A stretch of DNA of 64,000 nt from a virus: the IMG/VR virus record IMGVR_UViG_3300045988_176682; one strand, written 5' to 3'. Under the pieces are notes generated by a model. The model did not search any database and was not told the origin of the DNA. It saw nothing but the letters and a program-made list of their open reading frames with translations. Shown here piece by piece: positions 10,788 through 64,000 of this stretch. The position numbers and the translations under genes are program-made. Within the stretch, counting starts at the first letter, position 1; each line of letters starts with the position of its first letter.

Positions 10788-10983
10788 CATGGTTAAAGAA
10801 AAAACTTGCCCGATAACAATTTACCCTCCGGAAACACTAAAGAAGAAAATTGAAAACCGGGCAAGAAATCTTCATCGCTCACAAAATGAGGATATTCTTT
10901 ATTTAATTGAGCGAGGTCTTGAATTGGAAGACCTTAAGACTGCCAAGATACTGTCTCTGTTGAAAGAGCAGATGCCAGAATAA
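10788..10983 (+). CDS. ribbon-helix-helix (Arc/CopG-like) DNA-binding protein, a moron gene antisense to the structural operon
   Basis: 65 aa. N-terminal beta-strand ITIYPPETLKKKIE then helices (NRARNLHRSQNEDILYLIERGL), typical of RHH proteins. AGGAG lies 6 nt before the ATG at 10788. The ORF track used a TTG at 10783. Confidence 0.6.
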
Positions 10984-11407
10984 ACTGAATAGACCTTACA
11001 TTAGTCTTAGCAAATGGAGCGACTTCGGTATCTCCATTAATAATAAGTGCCCCTATAACTTCTCCGGTTTCATTGGCAACAAGGTCGATTGTTGACATAG
11101 GAACAAGGTCTCCGGCAATTTCACTGATAATTTTATTATGAATAACTTTTTCAGCATCATTAAAGGTAGCAACACCAATATTAAATTCTATGGTAACGAA
11201 TTTCTCATCAATATCAGCCCCAAATCCTTGTAAGCAAATACAGTGGGTCTCTGGCATCTCAGCCAAATCGGCGTGGGCATCGAGGTCGACATAGACTGCC
11301 CCATCAACTATTCCGTTCTCAATGAGCTCTTTTATCTTTTTATTAATATAACGAATGACCGAAGACCGGACATCCAAATATAAATCGGTCTTTTTTCTAT
11401 AAATCAT
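10934..11407 (-). CDS. tail terminator / tail-tube completion protein (gpU position)
   Basis: 157 aa gene immediately upstream of the major tail gene. Only weak resemblance to lambda U. Call is by synteny. Confidence 0.4.
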   Translation of the reverse strand: MIYRKKTDLYLDVRSSVIRYINKKIKELIENGIVDGAVYVDLDAHADLAEMPETHCICLQGFGADIDEKFVTIEFNIGVATFNDAEKVIHNKIISEIAGDLVPMSTIDLVANETGEVIGALIINGDTEVAPFAKTNVRSIQFILASALSTETVSWQS

Positions 11408-11997
11408 TTAGATAATACCTCCCTAATAGTCTGACTTGCAGTTCTTTTTAAGTTTCTGTCTGCAAAATATAATAAACTGGGTTCAAACATCGGTCTTACT
11501 TCTTCATTAGAAGCAAATACTACAGAATTTCCTAATCTTTTCTTAGTTTTTGCGAAAAGCCTGTTATAAATTCTATCCTGTAAATTCATATTTTTAGCTC
11601 TTGGATAAGGTGTAATTCTGATTAAAATTACAGTATTACCTCCGGCCTCCTTTTTCTCGGTAACAGAAACTTTAGGAGAACCTAAAACTCTGGTCGGGGA
11701 AGTATTATATAACCAGGTATCTAAAACTCCTCGATAAAACCAAAAATTATTATGTCCTTTTCTTTTAGCATACGCTCTATTTAAAGGAGGCCAATCGGGT
11801 ACAGTAGTGTATTCGGCAGGAAATCGATTTCGTGACCGATTAACGACGTTTTCTGACATAAACTTAAATAATCCTCGGGCTTCCTTTGTTAAGGATTTTT
11901 CCAGACGGTTTCTAATGGAAGCTACCTTTCTACCGGTAACTCCTTCGAGTTTTTTTCCGATAACTTTACTGAAATCTGTTAAACTATAAACCGCCAT
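11404..11997 (-). CDS. tail completion protein (gpZ position)
   Basis: 197 aa, basic, in the Z slot. Call is by synteny. Confidence 0.35.
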   Translation of the reverse strand: MAVYSLTDFSKVIGKKLEGVTGRKVASIRNRLEKSLTKEARGLFKFMSENVVNRSRNRFPAEYTTVPDWPPLNRAYAKRKGHNNFWFYRGVLDTWLYNTSPTRVLGSPKVSVTEKKEAGGNTVILIRITPYPRAKNMNLQDRIYNRLFAKTKKRLGNSVVFASNEEVRPMFEPSLLYFADRNLKRTASQTIREVLSK

Positions 11998-13307: not shown

Positions 13308-13754
13308 TTAATTGCCGGCTGGCTGATTTGATTTCCCAGCTTCCTCGTCACCAGAGGCATTACCGGCAGTGTTACCAGCAGGTTTAGCAGATTTCCCAGC
13401 TTCCTCGTCACCAGAGGCATTACCGGCAGTGTTACCAGCAGGTTTAGCAGATTTTTCATCTTCCTGATTTTCCAGCAGCAGCTTAGAATTGAGGCTCTTC
13501 TCTTTCAAGAATTTAGCAACTGCCTTATTTTTATCTTTTTCAGAACTGTAGTATTTAACGAAAACTTCATCAGTACAGTTATCTTTCAAAGTTCCAAGAA
13601 TGTTCAGACGTTTAGCTGAAACTGCGATATTCAAACTAACAGACTCTTCCAGTACATAAGGTCTGTCTGGCATAGCCATTTGGCCTTTATGATTCAAATC
13701 AAAGAAACAACCGCCGTCTTTTACCTCGACAAGAAATTTTGCTCTTTTTTCCAT
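13308..13754 (-). CDS. hypothetical virion protein with C-terminal tandem repeat
   Basis: 148 aa. The C-terminus carries 2.5 copies of SAKPAGNTAGNASGDEEAGK, encoded by a perfect 60-bp duplication. Confidence 0.5.
   Translation of the reverse strand: MEKRAKFLVEVKDGGCFFDLNHKGQMAMPDRPYVLEESVSLNIAVSAKRLNILGTLKDNCTDEVFVKYYSSEKDKNKAVAKFLKEKSLNSKLLLENQEDEKSAKPAGNTAGNASGDEEAGKSAKPAGNTAGNASGDEEAGKSNQPAGN
13322..13441. repeat. perfect 60-bp tandem duplication (2 copies)
   Basis: 13322..13381 and 13382..13441 are identical as read (gatttcccagcttcctcgtcaccagaggcattaccggcagtgttaccagcaggtttagca). Confidence 0.9.
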
Positions 13755-20064: not shown

Positions 20065-20088
20065 AAAAAATATTTTTACAAGAAAAAC

Positions 20089-20117
20089 TTGACATAATAA
20101 GACAAATGTGATTATAT
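20089..20117 (+). promoter_or_regulatory. promoter-like TTGACA-17-TTATAT
   Basis: TTGACA at 20089..20094 and TTATAT at 20112..20117. Confidence 0.35.
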
Positions 20118-20181
20118 GAGACTGTTCTTAAGTTAAAGCATTATAAAAATGTGAACACTCTATTTGTTCCTGCCGATTGAA

Positions 20182-20209
20182 AATCCTCTCTTTTTAGGGA
20201 GGATTTTTT
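20182..20209 (+). terminator. intrinsic terminator-like hairpin with T-run
   Basis: AATCCTCTC / GGGAGGATT stem with one G-U pair, loop TTTTTA, then TTTTTT. Confidence 0.5.
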
Positions 20210-20214
20210 ATGTA

Positions 20215-20243
20215 TTGACAAATAGAGAAAAATGACATAAACT
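20215..20243 (+). promoter_or_regulatory. promoter-like TTGACA-17-TAAACT
   Basis: TTGACA at 20215..20220 and TAAACT at 20238..20243. First of two tATTGACAA copies. Confidence 0.35.
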
Positions 20244-20245
20244 AA

Positions 20246-20278
20246 ACCTGTGATTTGTAAAGCTCCGCACAGGTTTTT
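20246..20278 (+). terminator. hairpin plus T5, a weaker terminator-like element
   Basis: ACCTGTG ... CACAGGT stem with a 15-nt loop, followed by TTTTT. Confidence 0.35.
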
Positions 20279-20342
20279 ACAAAGGTCCTAAAAGTCCTTA
20301 TTTAGTTCCTAAACTACATTGATGATTCTTTCGTGATTGAAG

Positions 20343-20370
20343 CCTCCGTCCCCTAAACGGAGGTTTTTTT
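20343..20370 (+). terminator. strong intrinsic terminator
   Basis: CCTCCGT cccctaa ACGGAGG followed by TTTTTTT. Confidence 0.6.
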
Positions 20371-20388
20371 ATTGACAAGGAAAAACGA

Positions 20389-20670
20389 ATGGAATATAAA
20401 GACAAAGTAGGACATAATATGACAGAGGAAAATATGAAGAATAAATTAACCCTAAAACAATTCTCTGCCGAAGTTGGCTATTCTACACGCCAATTAAGCA
20501 GGTATATTAAGTCTGGTAAGCTATTCCCTCGCCGATGGTTGAACGGAAGATGTTATTTTTTGGAAGAAGATATTGAAAAATTTAACAATTTCTTTCAAAA
20601 TGTTACAAATCCCGCCGTTTTAGACCTTACATTGTCGGAGAATCCAGATGGAGAAGACGAATTATCCTGA
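20389..20670 (+). CDS. MerR/excisionase-type winged-HTH DNA-binding protein
   Basis: 93 aa. LTLKQFSAEVGYSTRQLSRYIKSGKLFPRRWLNGRCYFLEEDIEKF fits the HTH_17/MerR-like wHTH. First gene of the plus-strand block. Confidence 0.55.
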   Translation: MEYKDKVGHNMTEENMKNKLTLKQFSAEVGYSTRQLSRYIKSGKLFPRRWLNGRCYFLEEDIEKFNNFFQNVTNPAVLDLTLSENPDGEDELS

Positions 20671-21093: not shown

Positions 21094-23559
21094 ATGGGAA
21101 TTTTTAGCGAAAACGCCCCTAAATTATGGGCTTTAGGGCTACCGGTTATGCCTCTCTACCCCAAAGAGAAGAATCCTATCGTTCCGTCTTGGCAGCAGTT
21201 CGCAGAACGGATGCCAACTCCGGACGAACAGGCTTTCTGGCTTAAAAACTATGCCAACGGTAACATTGGCCTCCCTCTCGGTCCGCAGTCAGGCTGTGTA
21301 GCTCTTGATATTGATACCGAGAATGACGAACTCTTCAAATTAGTTTGCGGCCTTGTTCCGCAATCCCCGTGGAATCGTATCGGTTCTCACGGAAAGGTGA
21401 TGCTTTTCAAGTACACCGGCCAAAAAACTTTCCGTATCAAAGATATTGACGGCGTAACTATTTGCGAGCTGCTTTCAGCCCGTACACAGGTTGTTATTCC
21501 TCCGTCAATCCACCCCAAAACTCAGAAACCTTACTATTCGGATACTAATCTGGAAGATGTAATAAAAAATCTGCCGGTACTTGACCAGAACATTGAGAAC
21601 ATTCTTCGTCAATCTCTCGAAGATTTTGGCGTAACCCTGTCTCACTCAGGCTGGACAAGAACCACGGATTACATTTCCAGAGGAAGCCGTGACGTAAAAA
21701 TGACTTCTATGGCCGGTTTCTTTGCCAACGGGATTACCAGAGGAGAGCTCTCGGTTAAGGAAGCCATTGCAAGAATGTACGCTTGGTATTCTTCCTGCGT
21801 GGAACAGATTGCCGGAGATGATGTCGACATTGATAAAGGCATCAGAAACATGATTTCTTTCCTCGTGCAAGACGTTATCGGGCCAAAGAAGAAGGTTCTG
21901 CCGCGAGGGTGGGACGAGGGCCTCTCCGAGGAAGAAAAAACCCAAATGGGGCTCAATTTTAATACCGAGCTCGAGGAGTGGGACTATAATCGCTTAAAAG
22001 AATATCTTTACGAGCAATTCAACCTTCATGCAGAGGATTCTGTCCAGCGCTCGGAAGCAATCGAATATATCTTATGCCGAATCGCCCGGTCTCCGAGCCT
22101 GACATCGCTTGACGAGGACCGAATCCTGAAATATATCAGCCAAACTTGCAAAAACATCCAGCTTTCTGCCCTCCGGAAGCGCTTAAACGAGTTAAAAACA
22201 GGCGATTTAAGAGGAACCAACCACACAGAAATCGCCCGTGCCGTTATCGAGGAAGTCCGCCGGTCAACGGATATGCACTTCTTCCAAGACAAATTGTGGC
22301 GGTGGAACGGCTCGAACTGGGAATCGCAGCCGGAACAAGAGCTGCTTGAAATGATAGCCAACAACTTCGGTCATCTGCCGGCCGCAACTCGAGCCACAGA
22401 CCATGCAGGTATCATCAGAATCTTAAAAAATATCGTACCGCAGGGGTTAACCGTTAACGGAGTTCCTCAGGCAAACGGCATTAACTTCGCCAACGGGTTC
22501 GTCGATATGGAAGGAATCCTCCATCCACACAATCCGGCCTATGGTATGACCTACACTCTTCCTTTCCGGTATATGCCGGAACTGGGAACATTAGACCATT
22601 GTCCTCGTTTTAAGCAGTTCCTTACCGATGTTTGGGGAGAAGAAAAAGACTTCACCCAACGGGTTCGGGCTCTTCAAGAGGTAATGGCCTCCACTTTCTT
22701 CGGTATCGGCACCTCTTTCTCACGAGCCGTCCTTCTTTATGGTATTGCCGGTTCGGGCAAATCCCAGTTGTTGGAAATCGTGAAAAACCTGCTGCCGCAG
22801 AAAGTGGTATCTTATATCCCGCCCTATGACTTTGACGACAGATTTAAGGTGACGGAACTTTCCCGTTCCATCATGAACATCTGCGGAGAGTTACACCGGG
22901 ATAAAAAGATACCGTCCGCCGCTTTCAAGCAAATCATTGACAGCTCCGAACTGTCTGGCCAATATAAAAGCCGCCCCTTGTTTGATTTCCGCCCGAAAGC
23001 GACGCATTGGTTTGCCAGCAACCACCTTCCGAAGTCGGATGACGATACCGAAGGCTTTAACCGTCGGTGGTTAATCCTGTCGTTTAACCATCCGGTTTCT
23101 TCGGATAAAAAAGTCCGTAATATTGGCGATATAATCGTCGCTGAGGAGAGAGAAGCCATTGCGGCCTGGGTAGTATCGGTGATAAACGAGCTGCGTAAGC
23201 AGAGCGAATATTCGATACCCGACAGCCACTATAGCTTTGTCTCGGAGATGGCTTCTGAAAACGATACACTTTTTTTCTTTCTCATCTCGGACAAGGGGCC
23301 GAGAAAGGTATTGAACGACGACGGGAGCTTATCAGAAAGTACGAAAATACACGCCGACAAACTCTACGAAGAATACACCGCCTTTTGCTACTCTACGGCT
23401 CATGCCCGGCCTGTGGGGTTGAAAAGATACTCTCAGAGGCTGAGGGAATTGTCGATTTTTATGGGATTCAAAGTGGACAGTTTGACGGTGTATGGACTCA
23501 CAATGGACAAGGGCCAGGCTACAATGGCGAAGAGTGTACCATTGATAAGAAACTTTTAG
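21094..23559 (+). CDS. DNA primase-helicase (prim-pol N-terminal domain + D5_N + P4-type SF3 helicase)
   Basis: 821 aa. VALDIDTEN is a prim-pol DxD motif. Walker A LLYGIAGSGKSQLLEI. C-terminus resembles P4-alpha/D5-like helicases. Confidence 0.8.
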   Translation: MGIFSENAPKLWALGLPVMPLYPKEKNPIVPSWQQFAERMPTPDEQAFWLKNYANGNIGLPLGPQSGCVALDIDTENDELFKLVCGLVPQSPWNRIGSHGKVMLFKYTGQKTFRIKDIDGVTICELLSARTQVVIPPSIHPKTQKPYYSDTNLEDVIKNLPVLDQNIENILRQSLEDFGVTLSHSGWTRTTDYISRGSRDVKMTSMAGFFANGITRGELSVKEAIARMYAWYSSCVEQIAGDDVDIDKGIRNMISFLVQDVIGPKKKVLPRGWDEGLSEEEKTQMGLNFNTELEEWDYNRLKEYLYEQFNLHAEDSVQRSEAIEYILCRIARSPSLTSLDEDRILKYISQTCKNIQLSALRKRLNELKTGDLRGTNHTEIARAVIEEVRRSTDMHFFQDKLWRWNGSNWESQPEQELLEMIANNFGHLPAATRATDHAGIIRILKNIVPQGLTVNGVPQANGINFANGFVDMEGILHPHNPAYGMTYTLPFRYMPELGTLDHCPRFKQFLTDVWGEEKDFTQRVRALQEVMASTFFGIGTSFSRAVLLYGIAGSGKSQLLEIVKNLLPQKVVSYIPPYDFDDRFKVTELSRSIMNICGELHRDKKIPSAAFKQIIDSSELSGQYKSRPLFDFRPKATHWFASNHLPKSDDDTEGFNRRWLILSFNHPVSSDKKVRNIGDIIVAEEREAIAAWVVSVINELRKQSEYSIPDSHYSFVSEMASENDTLFFFLISDKGPRKVLNDDGSLSESTKIHADKLYEEYTAFCYSTAHARPVGLKRYSQRLRELSIFMGFKVDSLTVYGLTMDKGQATMAKSVPLIRNF

Positions 23560-23583: not shown

Positions 23584-23802
23584 ATGACAAATAACAACCG
23601 TATTTACAGAAGGGACCAATTACGGTTCCTTACTGCTGACGTTAACCGTATCTTAGCCAAAGCCAGGGAAATAGAGAAAGATTTCCCGGACGATGACAGG
23701 GACGGCGCTAAGGAAGATTTAGGTCTTGCAATCCAACATCTTGACAAAGCGTTTTATCATTTAAGCTGGACGTTAGCCGGAGAAATGGACCCATGGGATT
23801 AG
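23584..23802 (+). CDS. hypothetical protein
   Basis: 72 aa ORF. Confidence 0.4.
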   Translation: MTNNNRIYRRDQLRFLTADVNRILAKAREIEKDFPDDDRDGAKEDLGLAIQHLDKAFYHLSWTLAGEMDPWD

Positions 23803-24407
23803 AAGCTATGATGACGAGAATGCAATCTGATTTATTAGAAAAATATACCATTTACAGCAAAGACAAAAAGCTTAAGCAAATAAACTGGCCGATACCGGTA
23901 AACGTTGAGGGGATAACTCCCCCCAAGACGTTTGCCTTGAAAGGTCAAAAAATGACCTTTAAGCTATACTCGACCAAGAAAGCCAAGGCGTTTATCGAAT
24001 GGGCTCTTACCGAGCTGTCTTTAAGCAAGAAGGAATTTTACAGCACTTGCCGGAGAATGGACGTTGTTAAGAAACGGTCACTAATTGTTTATGTGCTAAG
24101 GTGTGAATTTGGCGTTCCCTGTGTACAGGCCGGGGAGATGATAGGCAGAAACGTATCGCAAATTCCTTATCTTCAGATGGTTGCCATAAGGGAATATGGC
24201 GAGGAGCTAAAAGAAGTAGGAGACCTTATTAAGAAATGGAGAGAATATGATGCAGAACCCCGATGCCAACAACAACGCCAACAGCAATGCCAACAGCAAT
24301 GCCAACAACACCAGCAACACCAACAGCAATGCCAAAAGGATAAAGATTGTTCACAAAGACGGAAAAACCTATACCTATCCTCTAAGCAAAGTCCCCTCGT
24401 GGCTTAA
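23793..24407 (+). CDS. DnaA-domain-IV-like HTH protein, paralog 1 (3' end uncertain)
   Basis: KKRSLIVYVLRCEFGVPCVQAGEMIGRNVSQIPYLQ fits the DnaA C-terminal pattern ([32 protein letters not shown]). Homology ends near 24262. The frame then runs through a CAACAG/CAATGC repeat as a Gln-rich tail to 24407. Confidence 0.55.
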   Translation: MGLEAMMTRMQSDLLEKYTIYSKDKKLKQINWPIPVNVEGITPPKTFALKGQKMTFKLYSTKKAKAFIEWALTELSLSKKEFYSTCRRMDVVKKRSLIVYVLRCEFGVPCVQAGEMIGRNVSQIPYLQMVAIREYGEELKEVGDLIKKWREYDAEPRCQQQRQQQCQQQCQQHQQHQQQCQKDKDCSQRRKNLYLSSKQSPLVA

Positions 24408-24831
24408 GCATAAGGGAGAGTCTACCCAAAGGTATGACTGGCCGATTCCGATTGGCGAGAAGAGAGGGCCATGGACGGACACGCCTCCTGAGGTATATTA
24501 TGTAAAGAATCAGGAGATACGGAAAAAGAGAGGGAAAGCTGAAACTCTGGGGTGGAAGGATTGGGTGGGAGACTTCATAAGATTTACTTGTGAAAGAGAA
24601 GGTGTAGAACTCTATAATATTCTTTCTCCGGACAAGCATTCCCGTTTTGTAATAGTGAGAGCCCTTATTGTGTATGCGCTCAGGTGCAGGGGTGTTTCAC
24701 GATGGCAGTTGGGGAAAATGTTACACAGAGACGGGGCTACTATACAATACTTACAGGGAAAAGCGGTAGCGTTATTTGGTGACAAACTGAAAGAAGTCAG
24801 CAAGTTACTTGAGGAGTGGGATGATAGATAA
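24247..24831 (+). CDS. DnaA-domain-IV-like HTH protein, paralog 2, with Asn-rich N-terminal low-complexity region
   Basis: HSRFVIVRALIVYALRCRGVSRWQLGKMLHRDGATIQYLQGKAVALF matches the DnaA domain IV pattern, including RD..T. Shares the WPIP and KLKEV..LLEEW blocks with paralog 1. Confidence 0.6.
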   Translation: MMQNPDANNNANSNANSNANNTSNTNSNAKRIKIVHKDGKTYTYPLSKVPSWLKHKGESTQRYDWPIPIGEKRGPWTDTPPEVYYVKNQEIRKKRGKAETLGWKDWVGDFIRFTCEREGVELYNILSPDKHSRFVIVRALIVYALRCRGVSRWQLGKMLHRDGATIQYLQGKAVALFGDKLKEVSKLLEEWDDR

Positions 24832-24919: not shown

Positions 24920-24927
24920 TTGGGTAC

Positions 24928-25194
24928 GGGAAAGGGAAAAGATAAAAGGGTCACAGTTAGGTTACTGGAAGGTGTCCTAATATGTCCTATCCCGAAAAAT
25001 TTCGGAATCGGATTCGGGAAAGGGAAAAGATAAAAGGGTCACAGTTAGGTTACTGGAAGGTGTCCTAATATGTCCTATCCCGAAAAATTTCGGAATCGGA
25101 TTCGGGAAAGGGAAAAGATAAAAGGGTCACAGTTAGGTTACTGGAAGGTGTCCTAATATGTCCTATCCCGAAAAATTTCGGAATCGGATTCGGG
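24928..25194. repeat. three perfect 88-bp direct repeats (iteron-like), each with internal inverted repeats
   Basis: Period 88, measured from the recurrence of AAAGGGAAAA at 24931, 25019 and 25107. Each unit contains CCGAAA-aa-TTTCGG and GAATC-g-GATTC inverted repeats. Followed by an AT-rich tract at 25200..25395. Confidence 0.9.
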
Positions 25195-25395
25195 AGGGCC
25201 CTGTCCCCGGTTCCCTTGCCGATTCTCTCTCAAAAAAAACATACTACCCTTGCACTAAGTCTTTGATTTTACTTATTTACACCCTCTTTGTTCAATTTTT
25301 TATATTTATATGTTGTCAAGCTTTTTTATTAATGTTACCTTACCACTATAAACAGCGTTTTTAACATTCATATTTTACACACAGAGGATAATACC

Positions 25396-25764
25396 ATGAC
25401 AAATATAGCAACCTTAAACCTGCAAACAATTAACCAGTCAGACGATTTTATTGCCAACGCAAAAAAAGCACTCCGCGCCGATATGGTTAACAGCCGCAAA
25501 TTGACGCTTGACAGCATCACAGCAGTTGCCGCCCTATCCTATTCTTTGTTTATCCATAATAACCCCGACTCCGATTTCTCGATATATCGGGTAAACTCAA
25601 CAGAGATTAGCGAGTCCAGATTGCGCCAACAACTAATCAACTCTATATTTAACAAGCAGCAGTTGGAAGAATTGCAGAGCTCTGAAGGGCGAGTCATATA
25701 TAACAAAGTGTGCGCCGGCATGATTATCTTTAAAGACAACCTTAACAGATTTCATGCCCTTTGA
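25396..25764 (+). CDS. hypothetical protein
   Basis: 122 aa ORF. Confidence 0.45.
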   Translation: MTNIATLNLQTINQSDDFIANAKKALRADMVNSRKLTLDSITAVAALSYSLFIHNNPDSDFSIYRVNSTEISESRLRQQLINSIFNKQQLEELQSSEGRVIYNKVCAGMIIFKDNLNRFHAL

Positions 25765-25788: not shown

Positions 25789-25881
25789 TATCTTATCTCA
25801 AATAAAACTATCTATCATACTTTAAAAATAAACAAATATAAATTTAATAAAAATAATATTTTTAACTAGGGAGAAAAAGCA

Positions 25882-26418
25882 ATGTTAAATTTAACGATTA
25901 AAAACCCGAGACCGGGAACATTTACGAACAAACATATCATGATTGATATTGAATTGAACGGCAAGTTTATTTCAACTTACGAATGCAATCCGTTTTATCA
26001 AATGGATACAAAAGGCGAAATTTTCAATCAAATAGTAAATGCTATAAGTTGGTCAAATTCGAAGTACGATACTGGAACCGCTGCAAGATTATTTAAGATT
26101 TATTGTGGTATGGAGTGTGGTAAAGATTTATATTACGATACCGTAAAATCTTTCATGAATATAATCCTTAAAACCTTAAAGGATAAGATTTTGGATTTAA
26201 TTGACCTTAAAGATGTTGAAAGATGTTTGTTTAATGATGCCGAGTGTTTTGAATCCGGTTCCGATTTCGAGGACTTTTGCTTTAACCTCGGTTATGATAC
26301 CGACAGCATTAAAGCTTTAAAAGTTTATGAGGGCTGTAAGGAAATCTATCTGAAACTGGTTCAAACTATCGGTTCAGAGAAATTGAGAGAAGGCATTGAA
26401 TATTATCGGGAGAATTAG
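25882..26418 (+). CDS. hypothetical protein
   Basis: 178 aa. GGGAGAAAAAGCA-ATG ribosome-binding site. Its 5' end is partially duplicated at 28175..28230. Confidence 0.55.
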   Translation: MLNLTIKNPRPGTFTNKHIMIDIELNGKFISTYECNPFYQMDTKGEIFNQIVNAISWSNSKYDTGTAARLFKIYCGMECGKDLYYDTVKSFMNIILKTLKDKILDLIDLKDVERCLFNDAECFESGSDFEDFCFNLGYDTDSIKALKVYEGCKEIYLKLVQTIGSEKLREGIEYYREN

Positions 26419-27048
26419 CCATATATATTTTTGAGCGGGATGAGGTTATGAACAGATTATAATCCGGATTCAGAATTATTTAGGGATACTTTACCACGGG
26501 TATGGGAGGTTTTAGGTTCGGAGTGTCTCCGAACGGGGAGAAAGGAGAAAAATTTTAAATCGGGATATGAATCGATTCATAAAAAAGTTAATTTTAGACT
26601 AATTTGACGGAAGGAGATTTCAACTACAGGTAGGGAGATAGGTGAAAAAGCACGCAAAATTTTAACTCAAATGATATTCCTCTCTTGAATATATTTATAT
26701 TGACATTTGACAAATTTTGAATAAAATATTTCCAGAATCACCGGATTATAAACAAAACGTCGAATTACGTCAAAATTTCTCTATTTGTCTTTTTTGTCAA
26801 TCATTCATATTTTAATAAATTATTGATTCTATTATATATTTCTTCTTCTCTATTATTTCTCACTTCGTTTAGAATCTGAGTTTTATTTTTAGACAAAATA
26901 ATTTTGTATAAAAAAAATAACATAATAGGGTAAAAATAAAAACGATGTTTGACTCTTGTAAGGAAAGATTTTATTTTGTAAAAACAAAGACATCTCGTTA
27001 GATGATTATCTGGACAAAATTTTAGTCTACATAAAAAGGAAAAAAATA

Positions 27049-27881: not shown

Positions 27882-28172
27882 ATGAATAAATACGAAATGT
27901 GCAGGTTTTGTGCCAAACAGGGCTGGGAAGAGGTCCGCAAGGATTTAGCAAACGCCAGGGTATTTGATTATAAGGACAAAGAAGAGTTCCTTTGTAATTT
28001 TGAAAATGATTTTTATTCGCCTTGTTATTCCAGATTTGATAACGGTTTCTATTTTGAAAGCGGTAGCTGCTGTTTTGAGATAGAATGGTTGGATAATAAG
28101 GTTACTTTGACGGGAAATGTTAACTATTTTCCGAAAGACAGCCCGGAAATTTACAATTACTGTTTTGAATAA
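27882..28172 (+). CDS. hypothetical Cys-containing protein
   Basis: 96 aa from the ATG at 27882, with GAGGAGGG 8 nt upstream. Contains CRFC...C...CC. Confidence 0.45.
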   Translation: MNKYEMCRFCAKQGWEEVRKDLANARVFDYKDKEEFLCNFENDFYSPCYSRFDNGFYFESGSCCFEIEWLDNKVTLTGNVNYFPKDSPEIYNYCFE

Positions 28173-28185
28173 GAGGAGAAAAACA

Positions 28186-28266
28186 ATGCTTAACTTAACG
28201 ATTAAAAACCCGAGACCGAGGACATTATCAATTTATATTCATATCCGAAAAAAAAGAAATCTTTAA
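28186..28266 (+). pseudogene. 26-codon remnant duplicating the 5' end of the 25882 gene
   Basis: AGGAGAAAAACA-ATGCTTAACTTAACGATTAAAAACCCGAGACCG is about 85% identical to 25869..25915. It encodes MLNLTIKNPRPR then diverges and stops. Confidence 0.4.
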
Positions 28267-30026: not shown

Positions 30027-30114
30027 AAAAGATATATACATCTATAGAACAAATTAATTGATTCTTAAACTTTTTCGTGATAGGACATAATAAGACATAT
30101 AAAGGAGATTTCTT

Positions 30115-33439: not shown

Positions 33440-33617
33440 TTTTTATAAGTCTCTTGACATTATCAAAAATAAATGTAAAATGAGGACAATATCGGACATT
33501 ATAAGACAAAAAGAAATTTCTGTTGAAGCTGAAAACAAATTAAAAAACCAGTTAGTGTCTGATGCCAATAAATTTTGTTTGATGCTAGGGATATGTAATG
33601 GAAAAAATACCAATTAG
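33423..33617 (+). CDS. hypothetical protein
   Basis: 64 aa ORF. Confidence 0.3.
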   Translation: MGEVIDFYKSLDIIKNKCKMRTISDIIRQKEISVEAENKLKNQLVSDANKFCLMLGICNGKNTN

Positions 33618-43086: not shown

Positions 43087-43884
43087 ATGGTTTTAATTTA
43101 TGATGTTAATAACTGGATAAGAGTTAAACTGTCAACCGACGGAGACCAGTTAACCATTAACAATTTCTGGTCTGAGGTTTTATACAACTCTTCTAAAGGA
43201 GAGGTTCAAATTTTTGTCTCTGATGGTTTTAATTCGAGAAAAAAGAGAAAAGAAATCTATCCAGAGTATAAAGCAAAAAGAAAGCCTGCCGATGCCTCTA
43301 TTTATGATGGTATCAATTTCTTTAAGAACCTTTTGCGTCATGCTCCAAAAAATGTTTTTTATGTAGAAGTCCCGGAAATGGAAGCAGATGATATTATAGC
43401 TCATCTGGTAAGATACCGAAATAATTACTACATTGGAAAAGATATTCATATTATTTCAACCGATAAAGATTTAACCCAGCTTTTAGTTTATCCCGGAGTA
43501 ACTACTCTGGCTACTCCTCCGGTAGAACCTAGATTTGTTAGGCTTTATAAAACTTTAGTTGGGGATAATTCAGACAATATTCCGGGAGTGCCGGGAATAG
43601 GGAAGTCTTCTTGGGAGAATATCCCGGAAGAAGTAAAAAAAGAACTTAATATGATGTTGGCCTCCGGCGGGATGTTGACCGAACATTTGGCAGATGAATT
43701 AGAAAAATGTTTCAAGCCAAAGCAACTGGAAAATTTTTATGAAGCTTATTATAATGGTAGTCTGCACATGTTCTTTAAGATTGTAGATTTTATAGATTAT
43801 CCATTTAATCCGTCAATATTGAAGACAGGAGACGGAGACTTAAACTTTGTTAACAAGCAACTGAATGAGTTATTTATATTATGA
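43087..43884 (+). CDS. 5'-3' exonuclease / flap endonuclease (FEN, PIN + H3TH)
   Basis: MVLIYDVNNWIR, EVPEMEADDII, IISTDKDLTQL, LVGDNSDNIPGVPGIGKSSWE. ATG at 43087, with AGGAGA 7 nt upstream. Confidence 0.75.
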   Translation: MVLIYDVNNWIRVKLSTDGDQLTINNFWSEVLYNSSKGEVQIFVSDGFNSRKKRKEIYPEYKAKRKPADASIYDGINFFKNLLRHAPKNVFYVEVPEMEADDIIAHLVRYRNNYYIGKDIHIISTDKDLTQLLVYPGVTTLATPPVEPRFVRLYKTLVGDNSDNIPGVPGIGKSSWENIPEEVKKELNMMLASGGMLTEHLADELEKCFKPKQLENFYEAYYNGSLHMFFKIVDFIDYPFNPSILKTGDGDLNFVNKQLNELFIL

Positions 43885-45509
43885 GAAACAATGCTTGGCT
43901 TAGTTCTGGAGGAGATGAAGCGAGTGATGAAGTAATCACTCCCAGATACGTTGTGGAACCTATTGTCAAATATCTTAAGGCTAAAAATTTTAAGGTTGTT
44001 TGGTGTCCGTTTGATACGGTAGTGTCCCAATATGTTCGCGTTCTTTATAAGGAAGGGTTTGATGTCAGGTTTGGACACCGAGACATAGGGCTTGACTTTT
44101 TCAAATATGAATGTCCGGAAGCAGATGTCATTGTTTCAAATCCGCCGTTCAGTTGTTATAGCGATGATACAGAGGTATTTACTAAAAGAGGATGGATTAG
44201 ATTTCCGAATATATTACCAACTGATGAGATTTTATCCGTAAACAATAAAAAAGAAATTAGTTGGGATAAAATTTCGAGAGTTATAAAAAAAGAGGTTAAT
44301 GAGGATTTATATCATTTTAAAAATAAAAACATGGATTTATTAGTTACCTCTGACCACAGGATGTTTGCCTACAATAAATATTCTAATGAGTTATGTATTG
44401 GTAAAGATGGGGATTTATTAAGAGCTTCCGAAATTGGAAGTAAACACTATTTTCCTAAAAATGGATATACTTGGAAAGGAGAGATTAACAACGATTATTT
44501 AGTTCTCCCACATACAAAAAATCCCCCTAGGAGTAAAGTTAGCTTTTATCCTGAACTAAAGATACCTCTAATTGATTGGCTTCCTTTTTTCGGATTATGG
44601 TTGGCTGATGGATTCGTTTCTACATATAAAGGAACCGGACATGAATATACTGTGGGGATAAAACAAGGAGAATCTAGATGGAGAGAGGTAGAGAATATCT
44701 TAAATAAGTTACCTTTTAAATATTCTAAATATATAAATAAAATATACCCCAGCGATAGGGAAAGAAAAGCTGACTATGCTATATATCAAAAACAATTATG
44801 GGATTATATGAACCAATTTGGTAAATCTCAAAATAAATTTATTCCTTCTTGGATAAAAAATCTTCCTGTGAGGTATTTAAAGCTTCTTATTTATGGCTAT
44901 ACTTTAGGAGATAGTTTTAGACATAAAGGAATAAATTCAATAACTACTTCTATTCATTATGGGTCAGTTTCTAAACAGTTGCTAGAAGATATTCAAGAGA
45001 TATTATTAAAATTAGGAAATATAACTAATATTTCTCACCAGATTTTAAATAATGGTAATGATTATTATCGCTTAATCTTGAATAAAGATAGTTGCAGTAA
45101 CAGAGCTATGTATATACGTAAAAATCCTCAAAATAAGGAACCCTATAATGGGTTAGTATATTGTTTAACTCTAAAAGAGAATAGTATTTTTTTAGTGAGA
45201 AGAAACAATAAAATAATATTTTGCGGTAATTGTAAAGACCAAGTATTGGAAAGACTTTATAAATTAGATAAACCCTTTATGGTTTTATTTCCTGTTCAAG
45301 TATTACAGGGAAAGAAAAGAACCAAGTTGTTTATGAAATATGGGTTGGAGTATCTTGGATTTGATTCCCGTCCTTGTTTTTATACCAAAAATGACTTATC
45401 GTCTATAAAAACGGGAAATCATTTTGCCAGCGGATATTATTGCCGGAATGTTCTTCCGGAGAAATTAATTTTTGAAGAATTAAAATTAATACAGGAGCCT
45501 TTTATATGA
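43881..45509 (+). CDS. phage Dam-like N6-adenine DNA methyltransferase interrupted by an intein (exteins ~91 + 92 aa)
   Basis: N-extein DEVITPRYVV ... VIVSNPPFS (motif IV NPPF), then C-extein KDQVLERLYKLDKPF.... Extein total of ~183 aa fits the small phage Dam family. Confidence 0.6.
   Translation: MRNNAWLSSGGDEASDEVITPRYVVEPIVKYLKAKNFKVVWCPFDTVVSQYVRVLYKEGFDVRFGHRDIGLDFFKYECPEADVIVSNPPFSCYSDDTEVFTKRGWIRFPNILPTDEILSVNNKKEISWDKISRVIKKEVNEDLYHFKNKNMDLLVTSDHRMFAYNKYSNELCIGKDGDLLRASEIGSKHYFPKNGYTWKGEINNDYLVLPHTKNPPRSKVSFYPELKIPLIDWLPFFGLWLADGFVSTYKGTGHEYTVGIKQGESRWREVENILNKLPFKYSKYINKIYPSDRERKADYAIYQKQLWDYMNQFGKSQNKFIPSWIKNLPVRYLKLLIYGYTLGDSFRHKGINSITTSIHYGSVSKQLLEDIQEILLKLGNITNISHQILNNGNDYYRLILNKDSCSNRAMYIRKNPQNKEPYNGLVYCLTLKENSIFLVRRNNKIIFCGNCKDQVLERLYKLDKPFMVLFPVQVLQGKKRTKLFMKYGLEYLGFDSRPCFYTKNDLSSIKTGNHFASGYYCRNVLPEKLIFEELKLIQEPFI
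44154..45230 (+). mobile_element. intein (359 aa) with LAGLIDADG homing endonuclease
   Basis: Begins CYSDDTEVF (block A). Block B is LLVTSDHRMF. Two LAGLIDADG motifs (LPFFGLWLADGFVS and LLIYGYTLGDSF). C-terminal VYCLTLKENSIFLVRRNNKIIFCGN followed by a +1 Cys. Inserted directly after NPPFS. Confidence 0.7.
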
Positions 45510-46137: not shown

Positions 46138-48813
46138 ATGCAGCAACCACAACCAGTACCGTCTTTATTAGTCGATGCCAGAAATTATCATACGATATTC
46201 CCGGCTTTAATTGAGAAAATAAAAAACGCTCCCTATTGCGGGATTGATATTGAAACTCATAATGGAAAGGCCCACGATGGCATTAAACTTTACAATAAGC
46301 AGAAGGGTAAAAATGCGTTTGATATACGGCGCACTGTTATCACTGGAATTTCTTTTTACCCCAAAGGAGATACTTGTGCTTACTATGTTAATCTTAATCA
46401 GCTTGATAAAGATAACAGACTTCCTATTGAAGCCGTAAAACAACTTCTTGTATCTAAGTTATGGATTATTCATAATGCTAAGTTCGAATTAACGATGTTG
46501 ATGGCCGTTTATGGTATTGACCTCTCCTCTTATATTTGCACTTATCAATTAGCGGTTTCAGCATTTGGGCCGGACAATTACGATATTGGAAAATTCTGTG
46601 CCACTCCTTTGGGAGAAATCGGGAAACTTTTACCGGAAATTTCCCGAACCTTTGAAAATTATGATATTAATAAACAACCCACACCGGCGCAGGCAGAATT
46701 GATAGGAAAAGTTTGTGGAAAATCCTCGGATGCCGCTCACTCTTACAATGGCTGGGTAAAAGAGATTGCCTATGGTTATGGTTTGAAAAAGCTTGTTAAA
46801 AGCCTGTTTAATTATGATATGGAACACTATGATGAATGTTTAATGTCCTCAAACTATGCCAAACAGCGTGATTTTATTATGAAGAGTAAAGACCCCCAAA
46901 TCAAAACTCTTCAACCATACTTTGAGGAAGAACCACACATGGGCCATTTAACTGGAGAAGAAGTTGTTTCTTATGGTGCCGATGACAGCTATTGGTGTGT
47001 TCAAGTTTATGAGTGGTTACTTGAGTTTATTTTAGCTAACTCCCCGGAAGTTATTCCTACATTCCTTAATCAGGAAAATCCTATGGCTAAAATCTTCTCT
47101 AAGATTACTCTCGGGGGATTGAGAATTAATGAGGAAAACGTATATAAAAAGAGGGACGAGGAACGGGTTAATCTTGCCCATACTCTGAGAGATATAAAAA
47201 AGCATATAAGGGAGCTTCTTCCATTCAAATGTAATGAATATCCTGAAACTTTGATGAAGTCAGAAACCTGGTACAGTAAAGACCCTGAAAAATACCGGCA
47301 GAAGATTAGAGAATTTGCTTATTCTCCGGACTTTGATGATTCTCCGGAAGGGATAAAAAACCAAATTTATCAAGTGAACGGAGGAGCGGCTAATTCTTAT
47401 GGGGAAGATAACAAGACTGGCATAATTAACTTGTCCCATTATATGCCGCAAAGGGTTCTTTTTTATGACCTGATGGGTTTTAAGGGTATTAGGAGTAAAG
47501 GAAAGTTACAGTCGGATAAGAATGCCAGAGGTAAAATGATTGAAGAGTGTGAGAAAGATTCTCCTCAACATCTTATCTTAGAATGCTTAAATAAGATTTC
47601 TCAGGTTGACCAAGTTTGTAAACTTTACCTTAACCCTTACTTACTCTTGATTGACCCCGAGACCAAAAGAGTTTATCCAGACATCGGCTCCGACCTCGCT
47701 ACCCGTCGTATGTCAATGTCTAACCCGAACGGTCAACAGCTGGCCAAAGGCGGAGACTCTTCTTATATTCGAGGATTCTATCTTCCTGACAGAGATGACC
47801 ATGTTATTATGTCATCCGACTGGTCAAATATGGAGTTGGTAATCCCGGCAGAACTTTCTGGAGACCCGGAGTTCTTAAAATGCTTCGGACAGATACCTTA
47901 TGAAGACTTACATGCCATTGCCGCGGCAGCGATGTTAGAGCTTACTGATGAAGAGTTTGCCTCATTAAAGGACCTTCCGGAAGATGTTGATAACATCCGA
48001 GGAATCCATTTTAAGAACGAGAGAGGTGAAACATTGAAACCGAAAGATTTCTGGAAATGGGCAAGAAAGAACCTCGGGAAAGGTGCTAACTTCTCCTACG
48101 CTTTCTCCGGAGCCCTGTCTAATCTTCAAGAAAAACTGGGTTGGAGTGATGAATATCATTGGGCCAAGGTAGAAGCTTACCGGAACCGTTTTAACGTGTT
48201 TGAGGAATGGAGACTGGGTATCATTGCTGATGCCAAAGCCCAAGGCTTTGTCCAACTCCCTGACGGTCATAAAAGATACCGGTTTGAGGCTACTCAGATG
48301 TGGAGGCAGATAATGACAGATAAGTTTTTAGCAACCTATGATTCACCCGGCGTTAGAAATTTCTTACAAAAATTCCTGAAATTAACGCAAACTAGGGCAA
48401 ATAACCAGGCGGTTAACGCTTTGGTGCAAGGTACCGCAGCGGCGCTGACCAAGAGAAGTATGATAAGGTTATCAGAAGAGATTACTAAACGGGGATGGGA
48501 TGACGGAAGAGTTAGAATTATGATGCCTATCCATGATGAAATTGTGGCTTCTGTACATAAAGATCTTGTTCTTGAATATCGTAAATTGATTAGACAGGTT
48601 ATGTGTGAACAACCGTGGCTTTTCCACAAGGTTATTCTTAACTGTTCAGTCAGTATGGGAAGAACTTTCGAACCCTTTAATCTTGAGAAAGCTCCTCTCG
48701 GTCAAATTGAGTTGGACGAGGCTCCTCATGTTGACTTTATCGACCAGAAGTTTTGGGGTAAATCAATGGATGATGAAGCTGTCAAAAGATGCCTTGACTA
48801 TCTTTTTGAATAA
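46138..48813 (+). CDS. DNA polymerase I (family A) with 3'-5' exonuclease domain
   Basis: Exo I YCGIDIETHNG, Exo II WIIHNAKFELTML, Exo III YGADDSYW. Pol motif A DWSNMELVI, motif B RKNLGKGANFSYAFSG, motif C MPIHDEIV. Confidence 0.85.
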   Translation: MQQPQPVPSLLVDARNYHTIFPALIEKIKNAPYCGIDIETHNGKAHDGIKLYNKQKGKNAFDIRRTVITGISFYPKGDTCAYYVNLNQLDKDNRLPIEAVKQLLVSKLWIIHNAKFELTMLMAVYGIDLSSYICTYQLAVSAFGPDNYDIGKFCATPLGEIGKLLPEISRTFENYDINKQPTPAQAELIGKVCGKSSDAAHSYNGWVKEIAYGYGLKKLVKSLFNYDMEHYDECLMSSNYAKQRDFIMKSKDPQIKTLQPYFEEEPHMGHLTGEEVVSYGADDSYWCVQVYEWLLEFILANSPEVIPTFLNQENPMAKIFSKITLGGLRINEENVYKKRDEERVNLAHTLRDIKKHIRELLPFKCNEYPETLMKSETWYSKDPEKYRQKIREFAYSPDFDDSPEGIKNQIYQVNGGAANSYGEDNKTGIINLSHYMPQRVLFYDLMGFKGIRSKGKLQSDKNARGKMIEECEKDSPQHLILECLNKISQVDQVCKLYLNPYLLLIDPETKRVYPDIGSDLATRRMSMSNPNGQQLAKGGDSSYIRGFYLPDRDDHVIMSSDWSNMELVIPAELSGDPEFLKCFGQIPYEDLHAIAAAAMLELTDEEFASLKDLPEDVDNIRGIHFKNERGETLKPKDFWKWARKNLGKGANFSYAFSGALSNLQEKLGWSDEYHWAKVEAYRNRFNVFEEWRLGIIADAKAQGFVQLPDGHKRYRFEATQMWRQIMTDKFLATYDSPGVRNFLQKFLKLTQTRANNQAVNALVQGTAAALTKRSMIRLSEEITKRGWDDGRVRIMMPIHDEIVASVHKDLVLEYRKLIRQVMCEQPWLFHKVILNCSVSMGRTFEPFNLEKAPLGQIELDEAPHVDFIDQKFWGKSMDDEAVKRCLDYLFE

Positions 48814-63510: not shown

Positions 63511-64000
63511 ATGTCCAACGAACAAAAAATTGATTTAACCAAATTGTCGATTGAAGAACTCGAAAAAATTAAGTTCTTATTCCCGGAAGCTGTAGAGAAT
63601 GAACTTAAATCAAGACAGGCTTATGAGACCGACAGCGATTTATTCTTTGATGCTTATGGTGTTAAATTGGTCCTGGACCCGTTAATTAACGGTATGAAGT
63701 CTTGCCCGACCAAAAAAGGTCTATTGGAATCCGGTGTCCTTGGTCTTCTCGAAAAGATTTTGAATACCGGCGATAAAAGAGGTAACAATTACAAAGAAAG
63801 ATATGAGTGCTATAGCCATAATATGCAAAAAGAAATCCCGACTCCGGAAACGGTACAGACAGCTTATGCCGAAGAAACAGCTCCGGTAGAAACTGTATTA
63901 AATGCACCCGTAGAAACAGCTCCGGTAGAAACTGCACCTGTCGAAGCTCCGGCTGCTCCGGCTGCTCCGGCTGCTCCGGCTGCTCCGGCTGCTCCGGCTG
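63511..64000 (+). CDS. hypothetical protein with TAPVE and (Ala-Pro-Ala)n C-terminal repeats (3' end beyond window)
   Basis: ATG at 63511 after TAGGAGAA. Open to the window edge. Confidence 0.5.
   Translation, partial: MSNEQKIDLTKLSIEELEKIKFLFPEAVENELKSRQAYETDSDLFFDAYGVKLVLDPLINGMKSCPTKKGLLESGVLGLLEKILNTGDKRGNNYKERYECYSHNMQKEIPTPETVQTAYAEETAPVETVLNAPVETAPVETAPVEAPAAPAAPAAPAAPAAPA
63946..64000. repeat. GCTCCGGCT 9-bp tandem repeat (at least 6 copies, truncated by window end)
   Basis: Read directly; encodes PAAPAAPAAPAAPA. Confidence 0.9.

Follow-up and report, generated by a model that had tools for sequence, protein, structure and literature searches.

We analysed a 64,000-nucleotide stretch of viral DNA (IMG/VR record IMGVR_UViG_3300045988_176682; hereafter the window), concentrating on the spacer at 24928–25395, which the original prediction had proposed as a replication origin. 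The window belongs to a virulent-type, siphovirus-like phage of about 73 kb, and proteins identical to its own are found on 73.4-kb human-gut metagenome contigs. Genes for the portal and a GpA-type large terminase (TerL) occupy the minus strand up to 20064, and the plus strand then carries, in order, an HTH_17 gene (20434–20670), a 147-aa gene, the primase-helicase, a 72-aa gene and two open reading frames, ORF1 and ORF2, whose products resemble domain IV of DnaA. The spacer lies just after this primase-helicase operon, as had been described, and consists of a terminator, a zone prone to tandem-repeat expansion and contraction, and a conserved element of about 100 nt, followed by an AT-rich tract. 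The features of the locus are as follows:

21094–23559, plus strand: Prim-Pol/D5_N/DUF5906 (SF3) primase-helicase, the first large gene of the rightward operon (Pfam, PHROGs)
23793–24407, plus strand: ORF1, a DnaA-domain-IV-like paralogue; the homologous part ends near 24251 and a Q-rich tail overlaps ORF2
24247–24831, plus strand: ORF2, a DnaA-domain-IV-like paralogue with an N/S-rich N-terminus, a WPIPxGE motif and a C-terminal helix-turn-helix
24890–24921, plus strand: intrinsic terminator closing the primase operon, a 12–13-bp hairpin followed by a T-run (RNA fold)
24927–25195, no strand assigned: perfect 88-bp tandem array, with copies at 24927–25014, 25015–25102 and 25103–25190 plus 5 nt of a fourth
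25149–25251, plus strand: conserved non-coding element of about 100 nt, conserved in L010–L013
25313–25341, plus strand: sigma-70-like promoter, TTGTCA-17-TACCTT, within the AT-rich tract, for the downstream low-GC early-type genes
25396–25764, plus strand: first gene past the spacer, opening a low-GC block of small genes (open reading frame list, gene calls)

Tandem Repeats Finder (TRF) reported a single tandem array at 24927–25195, with a period of 88, 3.06 copies, 100% matches and zero indels. Self-BLAST and direct reading of the sequence agreed with this result, as did a separate repeat search of the window, which extended the array back to 24919 at 97% identity; the three exact 88-bp direct repeats originally described are thus confirmed. 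Both of the inverted repeats noted at that time, CCGAAA-aa-TTTCGG and GAATC-g-GATTC, can be read in every unit, together with a direct pair of TGTCCTA motifs at 10-bp spacing, which is the sole direct repeat inside the unit. Long sub-strings of the unit match three times in 64 kb, where none is expected, and all three matches fall within the array. In the stem of the preceding terminator, the related contig L005 carries a compensatory double change, from CCTTCC/GGAAGG to CCTCCC/GGGAGG.

Comparison of strains indicated that the copy number of the unit is not a fixed property of this phage. Two contigs with proteins and flanks identical to those of the window (L001 and L002) nevertheless have 1.06 copies, although perfect tandem repeats can collapse in short-read assembly and the copy number of these MEGAHIT contigs is therefore uncertain; a third contig, L003, breaks off within copy 2. 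Long contigs of two further strains, L004 and L005 (ORF2 96% and 92% identical, respectively), cross the array site with one copy. Three close strains from other metagenomes (L014–L016) have ORF1 and ORF2 proteins 99–100% and 90–98% identical to those of the window. At the array site, L014 has GTGAATAATAT twice in place of the unit's 5' half, L015 has a different short sequence there, and L016 has a 12-bp array of (TAGTATAATGAA) in at least 8.6 copies, inside which the contig begins. A 5-nt microhomology, CGGGA, is present at both edges of the unit (single-copy form TA-CGGGA-AAGGG ... TT-CGGGA-GGGCC), and on this evidence is the signature of slippage or unequal exchange. The copies would be perfectly identical because such an event, between CGGGA motifs 88 bp apart, was recent. 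Judging from the strains compared, the triplication is a recent strain-specific expansion within a hypervariable repeat zone. The earlier suggestion of homogenisation or strong selection is not supported, given the strain specificity of the triplication, its CGGGA edges and the unrelated sequence found in strains with the same proteins.

The same data bear on two deflationary explanations, that the copy number of 3.06 is an assembly product or that the unit encodes a structured RNA. Short reads cannot size a perfect 269-bp tandem array, and the same-strain contigs either have 1.06 copies or break inside the array. As for RNA, the plus strand folds better than shuffled sequences (z = -4.6), and two substitutions in L004 and L005 preserve G-U pairs in a local hairpin. 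Against these observations, L003, an independent assembly, has more than one copy, and perfect arrays at the same site in Seuss, an isolate genome, and in L013 indicate that expansions are real in this phage group. The region also sits after a terminator, with no promoter found in it, and in sister strains a wholly different sequence stands in for the 5' half of the unit. No Rfam match was obtained for the unit: no family reached its gathering score, with merely sub-threshold terminator-like matches at E ≤ 1, and we rejected a structured RNA; no tRNAs were found either. Taken together, we consider explanations of this kind very unlikely.

With the primase as query, 578 relatives were recovered at E ≤ 1e-50; many of them lie on 70–76-kb contigs. 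Four of these relatives, L010–L013, have primases 61–78% identical to that of the window and all four share its gene order, namely primase, two DnaA-IV-like genes, terminator, a first spacer of 360–610 bp, a gene of about 230 aa and a second untranslated spacer of 630–990 bp. In each of the four, the first spacer holds lineage-specific direct repeats and then a conserved block. Arrays were also found in the syntenic spacers of more distant phages, and JWF, whose layout is similar to that of Seuss and Lumi, has dispersed repeats there:

L010: 12 bp, about 5 copies
L011: about 34 bp, 2–3 copies
L012: about 53–60 bp, 5 copies, around GGGACCCGAGTCT
L013: 32 bp, 3.5 copies, 100% identical, plus additional GGGGACCCGAATCA copies
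L022: 10 bp, 4.7 copies
Seuss: 20 bp, 2.7 copies, and 32 bp, 2.4 copies, both 100% identical
Lumi: 12 bp, 3.9 copies

An iteron common to all lineages was sought among these repeats and rejected; GGGACCCGAATC is restricted to the L012/L013 clade.

The conserved element that follows the repeats reads, in order, two (A)TGTCCTA motifs spaced by 10 bp, an A5T3 palindrome, the GC-rich GGGCCCTGTCCCC, CCGGTTC and CCGATTC, an A-run and CATACTACCCTT. Its counterpart in L010–L013 contains two (A)TGTCC sites 10–11 bp apart, an A/T palindrome, GGGCCCTGTCCCC, two CCGATTC-type motifs, an A-run and CATACTACCCTT, the CCGGTTC/CCGATTC pair of the window being represented by two copies of CCGATTC in the relatives. 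The pattern CGATTCT-N6-AAAAAA-N3-TA-N-TACCCTT fits the window lineage and all four relatives and has a single occurrence in the window, and the element is absent from GTDB representative genomes. It has been kept across primases that are 61–78% identical and DnaA-like proteins that are merely 23–40% identical. The 5' 47 nt of the element lie inside the 88-bp unit and are hence triplicated, so that half of the element has been copied.

Beyond this point the composition changes, with GC content dropping from about 45% to 31–37% at about 25.2 kb. Roughly 200 bp of AT-rich sequence had been described after the array; this description holds for 25263–25395 (74% AT) but not for 25196–25262, which is part of the conserved element and is 49% AT. 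The AT-rich tract contains the sigma-70-like promoter as well as the 5' untranslated region of the next gene, and TTGACA is conserved at the aligned promoter site in L004, L005 and L010.

We next compared the spacer with isolate phages whose genome ends are known. The closest primases among isolates, about 42% identical to that of the window, belong to Achromobacter phage JWF, Xylophilus phage Lumi and Caulobacter phage Seuss; a blastn search of isolate phages found no near relatives. The window phage is of the same organisational type as these three, with head, portal and TerL genes on one strand facing a small gene and the primase operon on the other, and its TerL is 38% identical, over its full length, to those of Seuss and JWF. 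Seuss (NC_047757) has an annotated 1748-bp direct terminal repeat, which we checked in the record. For Lumi (OQ067477), a 2298-bp terminal repeat was determined with PhageTerm (PMC9959647), and we verified it in the Lumi record. Both inner boundaries fall in the spacer syntenic with that of the window, after the terminator (annotated in Seuss and visible in Lumi as a hairpin with a T-run) and the tandem array. Of the landmarks in this spacer, a terminal-repeat boundary alone has an experimental anchor. In both phages the array is followed by an AnTn motif, the boundary about 22 nt on, an AAAA-N6-TAC-N-C signature about 29 nt on and the first rightward gene about 100–200 bp on. Transfer of these distances to the window yields a predicted boundary:

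Seuss, L007 9076/9077: inner boundary of the terminal repeat, 22 nt after the AnTn motif and 30 nt before AAAA-N6-TAC-N-C
Lumi, 2299/2298: inner boundary of the terminal repeat, 21–23 nt after the AnTn motif and 28 nt before AAAA-N6-TAC-N-C
Window, 25200–25207, no strand assigned: predicted inner boundary of a direct terminal repeat, from the Seuss and Lumi distances
Window, 25235–25249, plus strand: AAAA-N6-TAC-N-C signature, in alignment columns invariant with Seuss, Lumi and JWF

The predicted boundary lies 5–12 nt beyond the end of the array. The composite of AnTn and AAAA-N6-TAC-N-C occupies 25172–25249 in the window and is also present in L010, L011 and L013. In every matching locus, L006, L007 and L017 included, it is unique to this spacer, and it was recovered in 0 of 300 shuffles, for a pattern that was defined post hoc.

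With moderate confidence, we interpret the spacer as the region of a concatemer junction or terminus, flanked by a hypervariable array. The conserved element would be the functional part, a concatemer-junction or terminus-generating site at which the packaging cut is made. The inner boundary of a long direct terminal repeat, and with it one physical DNA end, would lie at about 25200–25207; from there the repeat would extend to the right, taking in the early promoter and the first early genes. The array of three 88-bp units would be a recent duplication–triplication of sequence just outside this boundary. Such a repeat zone may offer extra sites for a packaging or recognition protein, as has been proposed for the T7 arrays, or may simply be tolerated. 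Packaging with terminal repeats in the window phage, the location of a boundary here and any protein binding are all points that we infer.

Several observations weigh against this interpretation. The signature was defined after the alignment had been seen, and the link to Seuss and Lumi consists of synteny and a short signature. An nhmmer profile of the element from the gut clade had no significant match in any of Seuss, Lumi and JWF (every E value above 1), and the TerL of the window phage is merely 38% identical to those of phages with known terminal repeats. L012 and L023 fail the composite, as does L024, in which the AAAA-N6-TAC-N-C core is missing too. No second copy of the element, or boundary-like core, was found elsewhere in the 64-kb window. 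The one-copy state of the MEGAHIT contigs may reflect assembly collapse, and a role as a terminus is compatible with an origin in the same spacer. Finally, the ends of Seuss and Lumi are annotated or PhageTerm-determined, whereas the end given here for the window phage is a prediction from sequence. The two isolates differ from the window phage in further respects: their array units are unrelated in sequence to the 88-bp unit, and DnaA-IV-like genes were not found in Seuss and are not annotated near the primase in Lumi.

Arrays beside a terminal repeat have a precedent in phage T7. There the direct-repeat arrays SRL and SRR lie just outside the terminal repeat, at the site of concatemer processing, as the window array would on the present interpretation. 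They are reported (Dunn and Studier 1983; Chung and Hinkle 1990) to flank the 160-bp T7 terminal repeat at the T7 concatemer junction. Their units, unlike those of the window, are short and imperfect, and the T7 terminase and replication proteins are unrelated to those of the window phage; in both phages alike, the function of the arrays is a proposed one. We would class the feature described here as one more case of a repeat array next to a terminal-repeat boundary, here a predicted one, in gut phages that have not been cultured. Should the mapping hold, the element provides a sequence landmark for the genome ends of widespread uncultured human-gut phages of about 70–76 kb. Searches of isolate-phage and IMG/VR collections did not find this group (in IMG/VR, ORF2, the primase and two patterns of the element all gave no match), and a scan of JGI metagenomes returned three close strains only. 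The spacer beside this landmark is a minisatellite-like hot spot, which makes it of use in typing strains; such regions are known to break assemblies.

A terminal repeat that begins at the conserved element would require an outer boundary, expected 1–3 kb further to the right, for which a second spacer is the candidate region:

26419–27048, no strand assigned: second long untranslated spacer, 72% AT and motif-rich, candidate region for the outer terminal-repeat boundary

This spacer is conserved as a 630–990-bp gap in all relatives (for example, L010 9937–10640 and L013 9818–10811). Four independent contigs (L005, L011, L014 and L015) end inside it, and three of the four ends map to about 26635–26802 of the window. 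We considered contig ends as markers of physical termini and rejected them, as they cluster in the second spacer but not at one nucleotide; no outer boundary was identified there. Either the outer terminal-repeat boundary or an origin may lie in this second spacer, where AGACAAA/TTTGTC motifs abound; a 14-bp palindrome, ATGAATCGATTCAT, is found once in the window and three times in L010.

The origin proposal involves two proteins encoded just upstream. ORF1 and ORF2 overlap by 161 nt and are 30% identical (E 6e-15), which bears out their description as tandem paralogues. Their Pfam matches to Bac_DnaA_C (PF08299) score 15.3 and 15.7 bits, respectively, both under the gathering score of 31.5, and the syntenic paralogue in L010 reaches 28.7 bits. 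An exhaustive HMMER search with a profile of the ORF1/ORF2 family matched 44 proteins at E ≤ 0.001, and Bac_DnaA_C was in turn matched at E ≤ 1e-3 by 40 of 45 sequences (43 search matches and the two window proteins), the best at 7e-31. In L012 and L013, the orthologues at the syntenic position align with the C-terminal part of NCBIfam DnaA models; PHROGs and NCBIfam gave nothing useful for the window proteins themselves, and no solved structure directly similar to them in sequence was found. In the AlphaFold model of ORF2, the predicted local distance difference test score (pLDDT) is 85–89 across residues 110–170, and each of the top eight Foldseek matches in the PDB is a DnaA DNA-binding domain (3pvp and 1j1v among them), with template-modelling (TM) scores of 0.75–0.79 normalised to the target and a probability of 1.0. 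Profile and structure-model evidence thus supports a DnaA-domain-IV-like assignment for the C-terminal ~90 residues of ORF1 and ORF2. The predicted homology to DnaA domain IV accordingly stands at the level of fold and family profile, while the direct Pfam matches remain sub-threshold.

The wider ORF1/ORF2 family has in common with DnaA domain IV (Bac_DnaA_C; 1j1v, 3pvp) both the fold and the helix-turn-helix signature R..A.Y..R......IG......RDhsTI. Unlike DnaA, proteins of this type stand alone, at 130–230 aa, and the window proteins fall below the Pfam threshold; neither an AAA+ domain III nor a Bac_DnaA match was found in ORF1 or ORF2, proteins in the range of 153–204 aa that are not DnaA orthologues by this measure. 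In L012 (7479–8123) and L013 (7448–8140 and 8118–8564), the DnaA-IV-like domain is N-terminal (residues about 3–123), rather than C-terminal as in the window, so that the domain layout of the pair differs between lineages. The Q-rich tail of ORF1 is an alternative-frame reading of the N/S-rich low-complexity start of ORF2 (a 12-nt repeat at 24263–24307), and gene callers skipped ORF1 entirely on public contigs. As a putative DNA-binding module, the standalone pair could initiate replication, serve in regulation or compete with host DnaA.

In an iteron origin, ORF1 and/or ORF2 would bind the 88-bp units and the element, melt the AT-rich tract and load the Prim-Pol/SF3 primase-helicase. The confirmed domain-IV fold is in keeping with this proposal, as are the 74% AT of the tract at 25263–25395 and a double GTCnn site, at 10–11-bp spacing, that is conserved in the window lineage and L010–L013. 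Moreover, the gene pair and a repeat-bearing spacer are syntenic in every examined gut lineage that retains the pair (the window lineage and L010–L013). P4 ori/crr and the pri-rep-ori of Staphylococcus aureus pathogenicity islands (SaPI) are iteron origins beside primase-helicase genes. As in the window, their origin or cis-replication repeats (in P4, two 120-bp direct repeats with short iterons) lie directly downstream of the primase-helicase gene, with an AT-rich tract nearby. The P4 and SaPI repeats, however, are conserved and matched to the initiator's own DNA-binding domain, whereas strains that encode the same proteins as the window differ at the array site, and most often have a single copy there.

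This lack of covariation counts against an origin built on the array: L014–L016 encode near-identical ORF1 and ORF2 and have different sequences or arrays at the site. The unit, at 88 bp, is not a 17–22-bp iteron and is present in one copy in most strains. Conversely, the syntenic spacer contains tandem arrays in Seuss and Lumi and dispersed repeats in JWF, although the regions examined in these phages have no DnaA-like gene. For Seuss and JWF, the small genes that follow the primase were checked and gave no DnaA_C-like domain; for Lumi, the annotation around the primase lists none. The AT-rich tract, for its part, is occupied by a conserved promoter and a 5' untranslated region. No canonical DnaA box was found in the spacer, and the window overall is not enriched in such boxes. 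GC skew, put forward as a check, was uninformative for placing an origin, as the cumulative minimum in the window, at about 20–23 kb, follows the switch in gene strand and not the array. We conclude that the initiator-plus-iteron module originally proposed is unlikely, repeats varying beside the same proteins and occurring in relatives without DnaA-like genes. Perfect repeats next to replication genes do not suffice to call an origin.

A bolder combination of the two ideas can be envisaged, in which the DnaA-IV pair is a new kind of phage origin-recognition module that binds the double GTCnn sites of the element and recruits the primase-helicase. Origin and terminal-repeat boundary would then coincide at the leading genome end, and the array would titrate or amplify initiator binding. 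We regard this scheme as improbable.

The early-type promoter directly downstream of the element raises the question of whether the spacer controls transcription or DNA entry. The TGTCCTA-type double site and the arrays would then be operator- or enhancer-like sites for the promoter, 110–140 bp downstream; their putative binder would be a helix-turn-helix protein of the phage, whether the DnaA-IV-like pair or the HTH_17 protein. Consistent with this, the motif TAGGACATAWTANGACA, contained in the 88-bp units, has eight matches in the window against 1.4 expected, and copies of it lie just upstream of or over the starts of plus-strand genes, as exact matches at 20408–20424 and 30081–30097, with two mismatches at 33492–33508 and with three at 20088–20104. 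Judged by these positions, TAGGACATAWTANGACA is probably an operator or promoter-associated site. Its copies in the 88-bp units, however, are reversed relative to those at gene starts, and the sites are 150–400 bp upstream of the promoter and beyond the terminator. The hypervariability of the array also speaks against a tuned operator array.

For entry control, the region would act like the untranslated part of the T5 terminal repeat, which is rich in repeats and DnaA boxes and for which a role in halting DNA entry has been suggested. T5-like phages have conserved repeats and eight DnaA boxes in this part of the terminal repeat (bioRxiv 10.1101/866236), and the T5 left terminal repeat resembles the window in tying a large non-coding repeat-rich region to a long terminal repeat and DnaA-type recognition. 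T5, however, uses boxes for host DnaA, whereas the window spacer has no DnaA boxes and the phage encodes its own domain-IV-like proteins; the injection-stop function in T5 is itself a hypothesis (bioRxiv 10.1101/866236). Both the regulatory and the entry-control variants seem to us rather improbable. We also dropped a partition site, a CRISPR-like array and an attachment (att) site as candidates, with no Par protein or integrase among the proteins scanned, no spacers and identical flanks in single-copy strains.

To the right of the conserved element, gene content differs between strains. A 76-nt segment (82% identical) occurs at both 25848–25922 and 28152–28226 and carries the 5' end of a 178-aa gene (25882–26418), of which a remnant is present at 28186. 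In L004, the intact 178-aa gene is at the downstream position (10872–11408), and a 240-aa gene follows the conserved element instead. From this comparison, modules are shuffled directly after the element.

In the divergent spacer between TerL and the HTH_17 gene (20065–20433), we observed two terminator-like hairpins, at 20179–20208 and 20339–20367, and a good TTGACA-17-TATAAA promoter at 20373–20401. There is no small terminase gene ahead of TerL, and the HTH_17 protein has a weak match to a small-terminase PHROG (phrog_57, E 0.003). Further downstream of the early genes, the window encodes a helicase (gene call), a 5'-3' exonuclease, an intein-containing gene, a family A polymerase, RNase H and an SbcCD-like pair; the LAGLIDADG/intein-containing open reading frame (43881–45509) lies just upstream of the family A DNA polymerase gene (46138–48813). 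Two other tandem repeats were reported by TRF, a 60-bp unit in 2.3 copies at 13330–13465, within a minus-strand structural gene, and a perfect 9-bp unit, GCTCCGGCT, in 6.1 copies at 63946–64000, which continues past the window end.

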